A stretch of DNA of 64,000 nucleotides from a virus (lineage: Duplodnaviria; Heunggongvirae; Uroviricota; Caudoviricetes), in the IMG/VR virus record IMGVR_UViG_3300045016_000151, positions 82,078-146,077 of that record. One strand, written 5' to 3'. Below, one piece after another: positions 1,964 through 57,155 of the stretch. The position numbers and the translations under genes were made by a program. The first letter of the stretch is position 1; each line of letters opens with the position of its first letter. The notes beneath the pieces are model-generated. The model did no database searches. It saw nothing but the letters and a program-made list of their open reading frames with translations, and was not told the DNA's origin.

Positions 1964-3867
1964 AAAGCCAGCCCCATAAAAAAGTCTGATGTTGCGTCGC
2001 CAGTTCCTTCCCACCAAGGCGCGGTATCTGGCGGTTTGTTTTCGTCAGCCTTGGCTGTTTGTTCAACTTGTTTACCTTGAATCTTCGCTTCTTCGTCAAC
2101 TTTAGCATTTGTTAGCCCAGATTTATTATTAGCATGATTACAATCACCAGTTATTTTTTTAAATAGATTGTTTACATTATTTATTGCACCGGACGCCGTT
2201 TCAATCATAGCCGTTGCAACGCTACTTAATGTATTTGCCAGATTAGCAGTTTGGCCGGATACCAAACCAGTTACTAACGCGGCGCCAAATGGACTTTGCT
2301 GTGCTAATTGTGATAATGCTTTTGTAACCGCAGAAACCAGCGGATTATTTAATATATTTAATTGTTTTAACAAAGACAATAGATATGTATCTTCGGCGAT
2401 AGCGCGTAACAATAATGCCCGCACTTCAGTAAATAACACAACAGCTCTACGTAATACTGCTTTATTTAACGGTGCAGTGACAGCGAATCCTGTAATAACT
2501 AATGAGAGCTTTAACAAGCTATCTATAGCTTCCTCATCATACTTTTGATACGCAGTGGAATTTAAATATGTTTGTATTTTTTCTATTATATAGAAATCAC
2601 TGGCCACCGCGTTAAAAGCTTCGCCCGCTTCGGTTTGTTGTGCTAATAATTGTTTTGCACCTTCTAATTTAGTAACTGTCCATGCTTTAAATAAAACTGG
2701 TTTGGCAATGGCGTTTGTTAGTGTTCCTGCCGCAGCACTATCTCCTACTTCTTTCAGATGTTTTGCAACACTAGCTTCTACTTCTTCGATTATTGACTTG
2801 GCTGGACTCAAAGAATACCATAGTACTTTAGCAGAAGTCTTTAGTGTTGACCAATTGAGCGTCCAATTTTTAATTAATTCCACCTGCTTTTTTATTACAG
2901 CGTGAGTGGCAACCAATCCCTTATTTGTATCGATCCAAGATAAAGTTTGCAAAAATGAATTTTCTTTCGGTATATCTTTACTCCATTGTGTTTTTAACGT
3001 GTTGTATTGTTGTTGTCGTTGTATTAATATTGTATTGCGGTCTTTTGCAACGCCGGGGATGGACTTCCCAAATGTTAAATCGATACCTTTTATTTCAACA
3101 CCAAGGATACTTGCGCCAGAGGTTATGATTGCTAATTGTGTTAGATGCCAAATATATGCTTCAGCCAGCATTATATGCTCAGCAACTACACCTTCTAATA
3201 TAACATCTTTAAAGGCCTGTCCGACACTTTTCTTTTTTGTAAGTATATCGTTAAAAAACTTTTGTCCTAATTTGCGTGATCGATCCCCGGTTATAATTCC
3301 AATAGCTACGTCGATATTATAAATTACTTGCCTCAGTAATGATGTATTAAAACGTGGTTTTTCTGAAGATAAACTTTTTTGTATTACGTTTAAATCCTCC
3401 AATGCTTTTTTGATAAAGGGATAAGCGTATTTTAATTGAGTGTTAACTGATTTTATATATGGTTTTGATAATCTTCGTAATATATTTAATGCGCCGTCCG
3501 TATGATATAATATTTCATTTAGTGATAATAATCGTAATGCGACCTGCCTTTTCAGGGAATCCAAGGTCATCCCAAAAGAGACTGATTCGGCTTCCGCGGA
3601 TAGATTCAAAATAGAAACTAGGCCGGCCAAAGCACTAGATGCAAATGCGCCTAATTTTTCTTGTGCGGCTTCTTGCATTTGTGTCACAGCGGTTTGTATA
3701 CCTGCGGAAGTTAATCCTCCGATAGTATCAGATAATCCCGATATAATTGAATCCAGTGCAGGTATTCCAGTGCCAGCAAATGCACCTGCAACACTAGCTT
3801 CCTTTGAGGCTTTTACTTTCTTTAATATATCCTCCGAAGTAGTCGGAGGGCACACAAATGATGCCAT
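1960..3867 (-). CDS. hypothetical virion-associated protein (635 aa, helical)
   Basis: Long ORF coupled to neighbours in tail module; function not recognised. Confidence 0.6.
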   Translation of the reverse strand: MASFVCPPTTSEDILKKVKASKEASVAGAFAGTGIPALDSIISGLSDTIGGLTSAGIQTAVTQMQEAAQEKLGAFASSALAGLVSILNLSAEAESVSFGMTLDSLKRQVALRLLSLNEILYHTDGALNILRRLSKPYIKSVNTQLKYAYPFIKKALEDLNVIQKSLSSEKPRFNTSLLRQVIYNIDVAIGIITGDRSRKLGQKFFNDILTKKKSVGQAFKDVILEGVVAEHIMLAEAYIWHLTQLAIITSGASILGVEIKGIDLTFGKSIPGVAKDRNTILIQRQQQYNTLKTQWSKDIPKENSFLQTLSWIDTNKGLVATHAVIKKQVELIKNWTLNWSTLKTSAKVLWYSLSPAKSIIEEVEASVAKHLKEVGDSAAAGTLTNAIAKPVLFKAWTVTKLEGAKQLLAQQTEAGEAFNAVASDFYIIEKIQTYLNSTAYQKYDEEAIDSLLKLSLVITGFAVTAPLNKAVLRRAVVLFTEVRALLLRAIAEDTYLLSLLKQLNILNNPLVSAVTKALSQLAQQSPFGAALVTGLVSGQTANLANTLSSVATAMIETASGAINNVNNLFKKITGDCNHANNKSGLTNAKVDEEAKIQGKQVEQTAKADENKPPDTAPWWEGTGDATSDFFMGLAL

Positions 3868-51043: not shown

Positions 51044-51583
51044 ATGGAAAGCAAAAGATTGTTATTTCAACGTGAAATAGAAACATCTATCAACGATATT
51101 CGGGATTACAGTGATTTTATATTTGCAGTTGGTTTGGATATAAAGGAACTCACACCAGAGGTGTTGAAACTAGATATTATACCAACAATGATAATTTCAA
51201 CATCCGCGTTTAACGCATTGGCCAAAATGAATATCCCAAAAGATTTTCTGGATAAATTAAAACAGGCTTCAATGTATACTTGTCCTTGGACTGAAAATAC
51301 GTATTTCGGTACATTACCGATAGCAGTGGCAACATTTAATAAAAACAATTATAAAGACTTATTAACGGATTATCAATTAGACACCGAATTTCATCTCAGT
51401 ATGAATGGCGGCGATGTTAAGAAATTACTTATTCCAAACCTTGTAGAATTATCATTTATAGGGCATGGTTATACGTCTGCAACACTTCCCAGCGATGGTT
51501 CCCATACACTAGTACTTTGTACGATTGAATTACCTAATAAAGATTTTGCTATCTGTTTAACTTATGCATGGCACAACAAATGA
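51044..51583 (+). CDS. hypothetical protein
   Basis: AAGG SD. Confidence 0.65.
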   Translation: MESKRLLFQREIETSINDIRDYSDFIFAVGLDIKELTPEVLKLDIIPTMIISTSAFNALAKMNIPKDFLDKLKQASMYTCPWTENTYFGTLPIAVATFNKNNYKDLLTDYQLDTEFHLSMNGGDVKKLLIPNLVELSFIGHGYTSATLPSDGSHTLVLCTIELPNKDFAICLTYAWHNK

Positions 51584-52281
51584 TCAGAATATTTCAAGTT
51601 GGTGGTAGTGTTAGAGATTTAATATTACGCGTTAAGTCAAAAGATATTGATTATGCAGTAGTAGCAGTTTCTTGGGAAGAAATGAGAAATTATATTCTTG
51701 CCAAAGGCAAAATATATCTCGAGACCCCAGAATACTTCACTATCCGTGCTCATATAGATGGTTTTGGTGATGCTGATTTTGTGTTATGTCGAAAGGATGG
51801 TAACTATTCAGACGGTCGTAGACCTGATACTGTTGAGTTGGGCACATTGTATGACGATCTAGCCAGACGTGATTTCACAATGAATGCTATTGCGATCGAC
51901 ATGCAAGATCCAAAGCGTCCTTTTATTGACCCGCATGGTGGGTTGATTGACATACAAAATAATCTCATTAAATGTGTTGGTAAGCCCGAAGATCGCTTCA
52001 ATGAAGATGCTTTACGCATGCTACGCGCGTTAAGATTTGCCGTAACCAAAAAAATGCAGATCGACTTATCAGTAGAAGCATGTTTTGGTAATCGTGAGTT
52101 ATTAAACAAATTGAATAATCGTATTTCTTGGGAACGTAAAAAAGACGAATTGTTTAAAATGTTCAAAACAAGTACAACACGAACTTTTGAATTGTTTGAT
52201 CGATACCCATCAATGCGCGACGTATTACTTTCTGATGACAAACCTTTGTGGCTTGAACCAACTTTACGAGCACGCCCATGA
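51580..52281 (+). CDS. short tRNA nucleotidyltransferase (CCA/poly(A) polymerase family)
   Basis: VGGSVRD, DID, DLARRDFTMNA, EDALRMLRALRF; no HD domain. Confidence 0.88.
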   Translation: MIRIFQVGGSVRDLILRVKSKDIDYAVVAVSWEEMRNYILAKGKIYLETPEYFTIRAHIDGFGDADFVLCRKDGNYSDGRRPDTVELGTLYDDLARRDFTMNAIAIDMQDPKRPFIDPHGGLIDIQNNLIKCVGKPEDRFNEDALRMLRALRFAVTKKMQIDLSVEACFGNRELLNKLNNRISWERKKDELFKMFKTSTTRTFELFDRYPSMRDVLLSDDKPLWLEPTLRARP

Positions 52282-52844
52282 AACTAGGAATATTTGGTGG
52301 CAGTTTTGATCCGCCGCACGCTGGACATTTATGGTTGTGTAGAAGTGCTCAGGAATTATATCATTTGGATAGTATAGCTATGGTGCCTAATGCGCTTTCT
52401 CCATTAAAGGATCATAAACATACAGAAGCTCATCATATAGTCGCTATGACACGATTAACGGCGTTCGAATGCGAAAGTACTTATTGTGATACAACAGAGA
52501 TTTGCCGTGATAAGGTATCATATACTATAGACACTGTAAAATTATTTAAAGATCATTATCCAGAAGATGATTTATATTTGCTGTTAGGTGGTGATTCATT
52601 ATTAGATTTTTACCGTTGGAAGGACCCTAATGAACTTGTAGAGATTATCGGGCACGAACATATTTTAGTGGCTGAACGAAGTACTGCACCTCTGATGGCA
52701 CATAAGTTTCGGTCGCTACCTATGCCCTACATACAAGTGAGTTCAACGGATATTCGTAATCGAATAAAAAATCATTTGACAATAAAAGGATTAGTAGTTG
52801 ATTCGGTGCGTGAATATATAATCGAACGTAAGCTGTATCTATAA
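52278..52844 (+). CDS. nadD: nicotinate-nucleotide adenylyltransferase
   Basis: GGSFDPPHAGH, SPLK, SYTIDT, LLGGD, W, SST.IR. Confidence 0.92.
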   Translation: MKLGIFGGSFDPPHAGHLWLCRSAQELYHLDSIAMVPNALSPLKDHKHTEAHHIVAMTRLTAFECESTYCDTTEICRDKVSYTIDTVKLFKDHYPEDDLYLLLGGDSLLDFYRWKDPNELVEIIGHEHILVAERSTAPLMAHKFRSLPMPYIQVSSTDIRNRIKNHLTIKGLVVDSVREYIIERKLYL

Positions 52845-54585: not shown

Positions 54586-54614
54586 TTGCGTTTAATGTAT
54601 TAATTTAGTATATT
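54586..54614 (+). promoter_or_regulatory. sigma70-type promoter for tmRNA
   Basis: TTGCGT-17 nt-TATATT; tmRNA G1 lies 6 nt downstream. Confidence 0.6.
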
Positions 54615-55120
54615 AATTTGGGCTCGACAGGAATCGATTGAATGAGATGTAGTATAAATGCATAGCGTCAGTGAACCGATGACGTAAAATCCGTTTAAAC
54701 AATAAGTGCAGAAGAAAAATCTGACATGACTTTTGAACAGGCTTTGGCACTAGTCGAAGTACCTGTAGCCGTAATGGCCTAATCGCTGACAAGAGAACTC
54801 GATAGCAAGGCCCCAATTGCTATGAGTGCGATAAACGGGGATGTAGGCCACTTGTCCGAATACAAGTAAGTCCTAAGTATGTAGTTGTAGCAGACGACCG
54901 ACTAAAAATACAACTAACTATGTGAATGAATTTTTATTAAATCCATGCAAGACCGGGGTTCGACTTAGTATTAGGTCGCTTATATAGAAATATATATGAC
55001 AAAAGAAAGCTCAAACGGCGAAACCCCTGCTAATAGCGAGGTAACACCGTCGGGTATGTAAAGAAATTTAACAGCTCGCTATCGACTTATAGAACTCTAA
55101 AGTATAAAAACTATGAGTTA

Positions 55121-55543
55121 CTAGGATAGTTGGAAAAATTCTTTTTCAAATTGTTTTTTTCGTCGTATTTGTTCTTTGGTGTATTTACCGTTGCGAACAG
55201 TCAATTTAGCATAATATCTTATAATGAATTTCATCCGACGTGATTTCTTTGGATGTCTAATATAAGGCAATAATTTATGCATTACGTCTATTGCATCAGC
55301 ACGAGTTATTTTCCAACTATATGCAATCATGTAATTTCGCTTTTGACGGCCATGATTACAAATAATTCCGCCAAAATATCGTTGTAACGGTAATAAAATT
55401 TCTAAACACGTATTAGCTACAGATAACACAGGTGATCTGTACTCTCCGGAGTGATTATGTGTTAATGTAACTGAACCCTCACCATCGACGATGCCGGCGG
55501 TCCAACTATAAATGCTTTCTATCTTCGTAGTCTTTTTGGACAT
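55121..55543 (-). CDS. single-motif LAGLIDADG homing endonuclease, antisense within intron
   Basis: WTAGIVDGEGSV motif; AGGAG SD before MSKK. Confidence 0.88.
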   Translation of the reverse strand: MSKKTTKIESIYSWTAGIVDGEGSVTLTHNHSGEYRSPVLSVANTCLEILLPLQRYFGGIICNHGRQKRNYMIAYSWKITRADAIDVMHKLLPYIRHPKKSRRMKFIIRYYAKLTVRNGKYTKEQIRRKKQFEKEFFQLS

Positions 55544-55567
55544 GGTAATCTTTTCTCCTATATCCAA

Positions 55568-55596
55568 AATATACTAAAAGATAAGGGAATAGTCAA
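55568..55596 (-). promoter_or_regulatory. antisense promoter for intron endonuclease
   Basis: TTGACT-17 nt-TATATT on minus strand; -35 box overlaps P7 3' strand. Confidence 0.6.
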
Positions 55597-55709
55597 GTCT
55601 AAAATGAAAATTTTAGAGTTACTGCCCCGCGAGTCCACCAAGGAGGTTTCTTTTCGTAGTACGTTATACTTCCTCCGTTCAAAATAAATAAAGGAAAACG
55701 TACCAAGAC

Positions 55710-56178: not shown

Positions 56179-56529
56179 ATGACAAAAGAACAATACAATC
56201 AACTAAAATCCGAGCTTAAAATCTTAGCTCAATTTCTTCATTACGACAACTATAATTCACGTGCCTACCAATCACAAAATGCCGGTGGCAAAAAGAAACC
56301 AAAAGAAATACCAGAACAATTAGAAAAGCAATTTAAGGAATTAAATATAAGTCCTTGGAGAGCTCACTATGAGTATAGACATAAACACATATTTATGTCT
56401 TTACAACGTGGTAAAAAACGTGAACAAATCGAAAGACCAAGACAAGGTAACGAACCCGATGAAAATTACATCAAAAAACTTGTGGAGCAGTATGAAACAG
56501 TTGAACAGACTGTATGTGTTAGTGCGTGA
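56179..56529 (+). CDS. hypothetical protein
   Basis: GGAG SD; overlaps the PTH2-like gene. Confidence 0.65.
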   Translation: MTKEQYNQLKSELKILAQFLHYDNYNSRAYQSQNAGGKKKPKEIPEQLEKQFKELNISPWRAHYEYRHKHIFMSLQRGKKREQIERPRQGNEPDENYIKKLVEQYETVEQTVCVSA

Positions 56530-56791
56530 AGACTTAAATCTTACATACGCTGGAGTTCAAGCTGGACATGCAGTAGCAAAATTTATGTTAGAATTCCCAG
56601 GTATATGGTGTAATACTACACTTATATATTTGCGGATAAAGAATGAGGATAAGCTTATAGAATGGCGTGACAAATTAATTGTCAGAGGTATTCCGTATGC
56701 TTTATTTAGAGAACCTGATTTAATGAATCAGGCAACTGCCGTCGCTGTATTGAGCGATGGTAATATATTTAAAAATGTAAAATTATTGTGA
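56492..56791 (+). CDS. PTH2-like peptidyl-tRNA hydrolase homologue
   Basis: LYVLVR.DL....AGVQAGHA, F.EPD....TAVA. Confidence 0.65.
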   Translation: MKQLNRLYVLVREDLNLTYAGVQAGHAVAKFMLEFPGIWCNTTLIYLRIKNEDKLIEWRDKLIVRGIPYALFREPDLMNQATAVAVLSDGNIFKNVKLL

Positions 56792-57079
56792 CAGTAAAAA
56801 ATGAAACTATGCAGTTAAAACCACCAAATGGGCCGGGGATCCATAGCCTCGTTAACCTCCTTTGGGCTGGCGTGTTGCCCATTAACCTTATTGGTTAGCT
56901 ATGAACAATCATAGTACTGTTCGCCAGAACTGCATTCCAGAATGATTTAGGTTAATTGCGAAAGCCCCTGGAACAGGGGAGTCCTACGCATACTTACCCG
57001 TCGTAGGTGAGCCTGTCTAATTATGGGTTAGACCCAGGGTCGATCCAAAAGGTAAGCTCGATCGAAATTAACTATTGTC
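56790..57079 (+). ncRNA. unclassified ornate RNA candidate (about 290 nt)
   Basis: At least nine helices including crossing pairs and a CTTACC/GGTAAG kissing loop. Confidence 0.6.
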
Positions 57080-57150
57080 TGCGTGGCCGAGAACGAAATA
57101 AGCACTAGTCTCTAAAACTAGTTACACGGGGTCGTTCCCCGTCGCAGACA
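57077..57150 (+). tRNA. amber-anticodon tRNA (CTA) with non-canonical D/T loops
   Basis: GTCTGCG/CGCAGAC; CTAGT-CTCTAAA-ACTAG; T loop GTCGTTC; no GG in D loop. Confidence 0.75.
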
Positions 57151-57155
57151 CTTAT

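Follow-up and report, generated by a model that had tools for sequence, protein, structure and literature searches.

How can a homing endonuclease gene carried by an intron of a structural RNA be expressed without harm to the host RNA? The question is open, and work on it comes mostly from slime moulds and phage T4. It is raised by the window analyzed here, a 64-kb (64,000-nucleotide) stretch of a 215 kb phage record with 35 tRNA genes, in which a group I intron interrupts the tmRNA gene (54620-55640) and carries a LAGLIDADG endonuclease gene on the opposite strand. Since the gene lies on that strand, it needs a transcript of its own. We put the probability at roughly 75% that this is, taken as a whole, a mobile intron whose antisense gene is driven by a promoter derived from the ribozyme's catalytic core.

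The match of the locus to the Rfam tmRNA model (RF00023, E 1.2e-12) stops within the T loop. In silico excision of the intron gave a whole tmRNA by ARAGORN, with the junction TTCGACT-CCCCG; by ARAGORN and RF00023 the spliced form has an alanine acceptor stem with G3.U70, a T arm, CCA, a resume signal and a tag open reading frame (ORF). The tag peptide is unusually long at 24 amino acids and ends in VMA, and that of a relative (L001) has 31 amino acids and the same ending. Upstream of the gene is a putative promoter whose -10 box and preceding G are identical to those of a promoter class found elsewhere in the phage genome; transcription from it would begin at about the mature 5' end of the tmRNA (~54620). 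Among related loci, five tmRNA genes appear to be permuted and intron-split at once (L003, L174, L176, L179, L183), and in another a Pistol ribozyme (L013, 2875-2942) lies close to the tmRNA gene.

Table. Features of the interrupted tmRNA gene and of the antisense endonuclease gene, in coordinates of the window.
Feature	Position	Strand	Remarks
Putative tmRNA promoter	54586..54614	+	TTGCGT-17-TATATT; candidate from sequence reading
tmRNA exon 1	54620..54965	+	acceptor 5' strand, tag ORF 54708-54782, T-stem 5' strand, whole T loop; RF00023, ARAGORN
P1	54961..54978	+	54961-67/54972-78, 7/7 pairs; U54965.G54974 at 5' splice site
Group I intron	54966..55624	+	659 nt, T-loop site 8; terminal G at 55624
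P3 5' strand	55004..55010	+	7/7 pairs with 55514-55520
P4-P6 domain	55015..55080	+	P4 = 55015-20/55045-50
P7 5' strand	55082..55087	+	U, bulged C, GACU; guanosine-binding site
P7.1 and P7.2 5' strand	55088..55134	+	P7.2 5' strand 55126-55134; overlaps final codons of endonuclease
P7.2 3' strand and P3 3' strand	55501..55520	+	55501-09 and 55514-20; 9/9 and 7/7 pairs; register fixed by relatives
P8 hairpin	55521..55582	+	fold; reverse strand carries -10, predicted start site, RBS, ATG
P9.0 and P9	55596..55623	+	P9.0 55596-97/55622-23, covariation; P9 55598-55617, GAAA loop, fold
tmRNA exon 2	55625..55640	+	T-stem 3' strand, acceptor 3' strand with G3.U70, CCA
Candidate -35 box TTGACT	55596..55591	-	reverse of P7 3' strand (55591-95) and first P9.0 base (55596)
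Candidate -10 box TATATT	55573..55568	-	17 nt from -35
Candidate RBS AGGAG	55559..55555	-	11 nt ahead of ATG 55543
LAGLIDADG endonuclease gene	55543..55121	-	single motif, 140 aa, intact; TAG then TAA

The intron follows the seventh base of the T loop, which by our reading of the numbering in PMC11915505 is site 8. Site 7 with a C at -1 was ruled out as exon 2 lacks an initial U. Site 7 is the common one and site 8 was reported only for Saprospiraceae (PMC11915505), unlike the phage case here. A related intron (L320) is also at site 8 while that of its sister (L319) is at site 7, suggesting a local one-base slide, so that site 8 may have arisen in this way and not through a new invasion.

The intron has the parts of a group I ribozyme: U.G in P1, a terminal G, a P3/P7 pseudoknot core with a guanosine-binding site, P4-P6, P8, P9.0 and P9. 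Across 23 related introns the P3 pairing holds in 144 of 161 cells, as against 100 with shuffled partners. P7 covaries, with the end pair U-A where the bulged base is C and G-C where it is A, as does P9.0 (AG/CU, AC/GU, GU/AC). A profile built from 34 gene-less tmRNA introns matches 54974-55136 (E 3e-22) and 55573-55624 (E 0.028). Gene-less relatives match the Rfam group I model RF00028 at E 7e-5 to 4e-3, under the gathering score, and a search of the window itself with RF00028 gave no match. Together with the spliced form recovered by ARAGORN, the core pairing and the profile bear out the sequence-only reading, which had placed a group I intron in the T loop with this junction. Given this structure, the plus-strand RNA would self-splice at the T loop to complete the tmRNA. 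An initial assignment of the P3 3' strand to 55548-56 and of P8 to 55557-87 was discarded once relatives had fixed the register. The P7.2 5' strand has a second partner inside the endonuclease gene, as 55309-55320 is a perfect 12-bp complement of 55126-55137 that arises from a second YSW using the same codons; this possible alternative P7.2 was set aside for 55501-09, the homologous position. In one relative (L176, ~2280-2800, minus strand) a second set of group I-like core motifs lies directly upstream of the tmRNA intron.

The encoded protein has one LAGLIDADG helix with an acidic residue in an alpha-beta-beta-alpha-beta-beta-alpha fold. It scores under the cut-off of Pfam LAGLIDADG_1 (E 7e-4), has the invariant family residues D20, G21, E22 and G23, and is modeled with a pLDDT of 95 in the fold of I-CreI, I-MsoI and I-CvuI (TM ~0.7). 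It shares the single motif with these homodimeric endonucleases and differs in its low identity to them (15-21%), its conserved C-terminal RNGKY part and in being associated with tmRNA and not with rRNA. PHROG labels it "HNH endonuclease", a name at odds with both motif and fold that was dropped. The protein has 2558 relatives, and the same protein is found on 15 contigs; a single-protein viral search gave no result, and the matches of a GTDB pattern scan were mostly due to chance.

At most high-scoring loci, a tmRNA gene either contains or adjoins the family member. Four arrangements occur: antisense within the intron, sense within it, outside an intron-bearing tmRNA gene, or beside an intronless one. 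Intron endonucleases had been taken to be usually sense-oriented; this fails for the tmRNA-intron family, where about 15 of the intron-borne genes sampled are antisense and 7 sense, in a sample biased by the query. Two antisense members (L125, L143) group with sense ones (L129-L154) in the protein tree (support 94/84), so gene orientation flipped at least once. Six free-standing members (L005, L015, L094, L095, L115, L018) adjoin intronless tmRNA genes. Several of these tmRNA genes have an altered T arm, in line with a need of the host allele to withstand cleavage. The family's genomic ties to tmRNA genes make T-arm DNA the likeliest target, at a pseudo-palindrome around TCGA, and a homodimer would cut this DNA in intronless tmRNA genes, leading to homing.

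The endonuclease gene was indeed found on the opposite strand as first described, and its position, given then as between P3 and P7, can be refined to the P7.2 loop, between the 5' strand of P7 and the 3' strand of P3. Some 365 nt of it are loop sequence with no structural role. The first 43 nt are shared with P8, P3 and P7.2, the last 14 nt with P7.2 and P7.1, and codons 8-15 encode on the other strand the 3' strands of P7.2 and P3. Most antisense relatives have as their start codon a triplet that reads CAU on the ribozyme strand, at the foot of P7.2. The phage intron has at that position a UAU paired with AUA, and its ATG is higher up, inside P8. Of two relatives that look like intermediates toward the upper ATG, one has both ATGs in frame (L322) and the other has the upper ATG out of frame (L309). 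The reverse-strand layout of P8 is the same in L320 and L309.

The TTGACT and TATATT hexamers 17 nt apart, the AGGAG and the ATG are all where the sequence-only reading had them, except that the -35 box, which it equated with a P7 strand, takes five bases from P7 and its sixth from P9.0. The candidate is of sigma70 type in that the hexamers are 17 nt apart, lie upstream of the start codon and are kept with the gene, though the consensus may not be that of the host. Transcription is predicted to start near 55561, and translation would proceed via AGGAG-N11-ATG; the corresponding spacing is 9 nt in L319 and 12 nt in L320. In computed folds, the AUG has an unpaired probability of 0.77 in an RNA starting at 55561 and 0.01 in RNAs starting at 55565 or upstream, so that the AUG of longer read-through RNAs would be buried in the reverse P8 hairpin, with the caveat that every P8 hairpin has a mirror image. 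This fold offers a lead in its resemblance to the hairpin that conceals the translation start of T4 I-TevI (PMC3073962).

Taken alone, a match of this kind is at chance level: 60 sites were found in 19 kb as against 72 expected, and nine of the 60 have at least 10 of 12 matches. The comparison among introns makes the match to a promoter significant as a sequence pattern. An xxGACT hexamer, mostly TGGACT, is present in all introns of the set whatever their cargo, and the -35 is thus a by-product of the ribozyme. P8, home of the -10, varies freely among introns. Under our main rule for a -10 (A at position 2, T at position 6, at least 4 of 6 matches), 10 of 14 introns with an antisense gene have one at 16-18 nt, eight of them at exactly 17 and no other spacing from P7 more than three times. 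The rate is 6/59 in gene-less introns, 6/20 in GC-matched gene-less introns (p=0.035) and 0/7 in introns with sense genes. When P8 was shuffled, 1.5 such boxes were expected among the 14, and none of 5000 shuffles reached 10. The introns are related and their trees are weak at depth, so these p-values are too small; the signal is found in about six or seven lineages and missing from three. A graded, weighted scoring of -10 boxes was secondary to the plain rule. A further antisense intron (L333) is the eleventh with a -10, and two of the six gene-less introns that have one (L228, L332) lost by recent deletion a gene that their siblings still carry. The four antisense introns with no -10 at 16-18 nt are L004, L016, L143 and L322, the last having an extended -10 further on. 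The proposal that one sequence serves as both core and promoter thus stands with good comparative support, in the form that the ribozyme yields the -35 and that the -10 in P8 tracks the gene.

It is unlikely that the -35 match is incidental and P7 uninvolved, with the gene transcribed by way of just the -10, a promoter particular to the phage, or read-through entering from the right. The ubiquity of xxGACT and the chance-level match of the promoter alone would fit such a scenario, as would the extended -10 of L322 at a different distance and the lack of one at 16-18 nt in L016. In most antisense introns, too, the -35 has only the TGGACT form (4/6). However, an incidental -35 does not account for the clustering of the -10 at exactly 17 nt from P7, and the phage's own -10 has no TG extension. 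The TTGACT form is found in five antisense introns and in no others, albeit in two lineages only, and L319 and L320 have TTGACT-17-TATAAT in the same position. The free-standing sister of the phage gene (L001; tree support 99/92) lies outside any intron, behind an intronless tmRNA, and shares an N-terminal extension with it. Its P7 is broken (TAGTC to CAGTC), yet TTGACT-17-TATAAT is kept, and its upstream DNA resembles that of the phage beyond the hexamers (4/2000 shuffles), which may reflect descent or promoter consensus. The phage itself has a promoter class of the form TTGAC(A/T)-16 nt-G-TATA(A/T)T; ten TTGACN-17-TANANT sites occur in its genome, eight with a G before the -10. Four of the ten, the endonuclease site among them, have AGGAG within 20 nt, as against 0.07 expected. 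The favored account is that the core read backwards, through P7 and P9.0, supplies a -35-like hexamer to which selection would have added and then kept a -10, giving a putative promoter of sigma70 type, in the class that the phage probably uses elsewhere.

The sequence-only reading had also supposed that antisense transcription could damp tmRNA splicing. Interference is physically possible, as two convergent candidate promoters of one class lie about 950 nt apart, the tmRNA one being the weaker, and no intrinsic terminator was found on the minus strand from the stop codon to 54500. The endonuclease mRNA must, moreover, pair with the 3' strand of P3 and the 5' strand of P8, and the hazard of such interference is discussed for the antisense genes of Didymium (PMC9548176). 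It is nonetheless quite improbable that selection has made the antisense transcript a regulator of tmRNA splicing or transcription. Most related introns lack both the gene and the -10, and the -10 is absent from 53 of 59 gene-less and 7 of 7 sense introns; as it tracks the gene rather than the intron, we read an antisense effect as a cost and find the proposed function unsupported, though sequence alone cannot separate the two. Least credible is a silent, relic endonuclease gene whose promoter and frame are held by RNA-structure constraint only. Clear deleted remnants do exist among relatives (L181, L228, L332), and the -10 persists in the latter two. The phage gene, however, is an open 140-codon frame with all family-invariant residues and a confident fold, shared by 15 contigs, and most of it lies in a loop free of structural constraint. 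"Remnant" was dropped as a general label for gene-less introns with ATG..CAT ends, as those bases double as the P7.2 helix. Under the preferred core-derived promoter, any antisense effect on splicing would be a side cost and not its purpose.

Both tmRNA introns with LAGLIDADG genes (PMC11915505) and antisense intron genes with internal promoters (in Didymium) are already known; what is new is the test of a P7 strand doubling as the endonuclease promoter. Nawrocki, Petrov and Williams (2025; PMC11915505) found a LAGLIDADG gene in the P7.1 region in 19 of 23 founding cases and 36 of 883 overall. The phage intron is like theirs in being a T-loop group I intron of <700 nt with a U.G at -1, a terminal G and a gene in the P7.1 region; PMC11915505 makes no statement of gene orientation or promoters, and some of its 19 may be antisense. 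According to the accessible text of PMC3073962 and PMC9548176, the Didymium rDNA introns with I-DirII and I-DsqI likewise place a gene opposite the ribozyme strand in a structural-RNA host, express it from its own internal promoter and face interference as a recognized problem. Those genes differ in being eukaryotic, of the His-Cys family, under a Pol II promoter and inserted peripherally (P9 for I-DsqI), and that text describes no overlap of promoter and catalytic core. The gene-core overlap of the phage is the "core creep" of PMC3073962, which describes ORF ends overlapping core helices and start and stop codons recruited within the ribozyme, as for I-TevI in the T4 td intron. I-TevI, however, is a sense GIY-YIG gene in P6, whereas the phage overlap is on the opposite strand and would include promoter, RBS and start codon. 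No report of a promoter overlapping P7 was found in the openly accessible literature searched.

A broader reading, which we favor with some reserve, is that throughout a widespread tmRNA-intron lineage the core, on its reverse strand, comes equipped as an expression cassette, with a -35 from P7/P9.0, a Shine-Dalgarno-like sequence at the P3/P8 junction and a start codon at the base of P7.2, so that only the -10 in P8 must evolve. The same bases would be at once part of a catalytic RNA, promoter DNA and, in the phage's lineage, codons, and the promoter could leave the intron with the gene. This would be a bacterial-type answer to the expression problem, with DNA, RNA and protein constraints on the same bases, and is testable in E. 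coli. It further hints at a reason for the recurrent antisense insertion at P7.2 and at a route from intronic to free-standing tmRNA-linked endonucleases.

A 140-amino acid ORF near the tmRNA gene (56369-56791) is labeled "hydrolase" by PHROG; its motif resembles that of peptidyl-tRNA hydrolase 2, suggesting a ribosome-rescue cluster. Given a tRNA with a CTA anticodon at 57077-57151, a possible amber suppressor, recoding of TAG was considered and dropped, with no clear sign of it (of the genome's 151 long ORFs, only 8 end in TAG); in the endonuclease gene a TAA directly after the TAG would stop translation in any case. Within the tRNA array, 51568-52844 holds a CCA-adding/poly(A) polymerase head-domain gene and a cytidylyltransferase-like gene.
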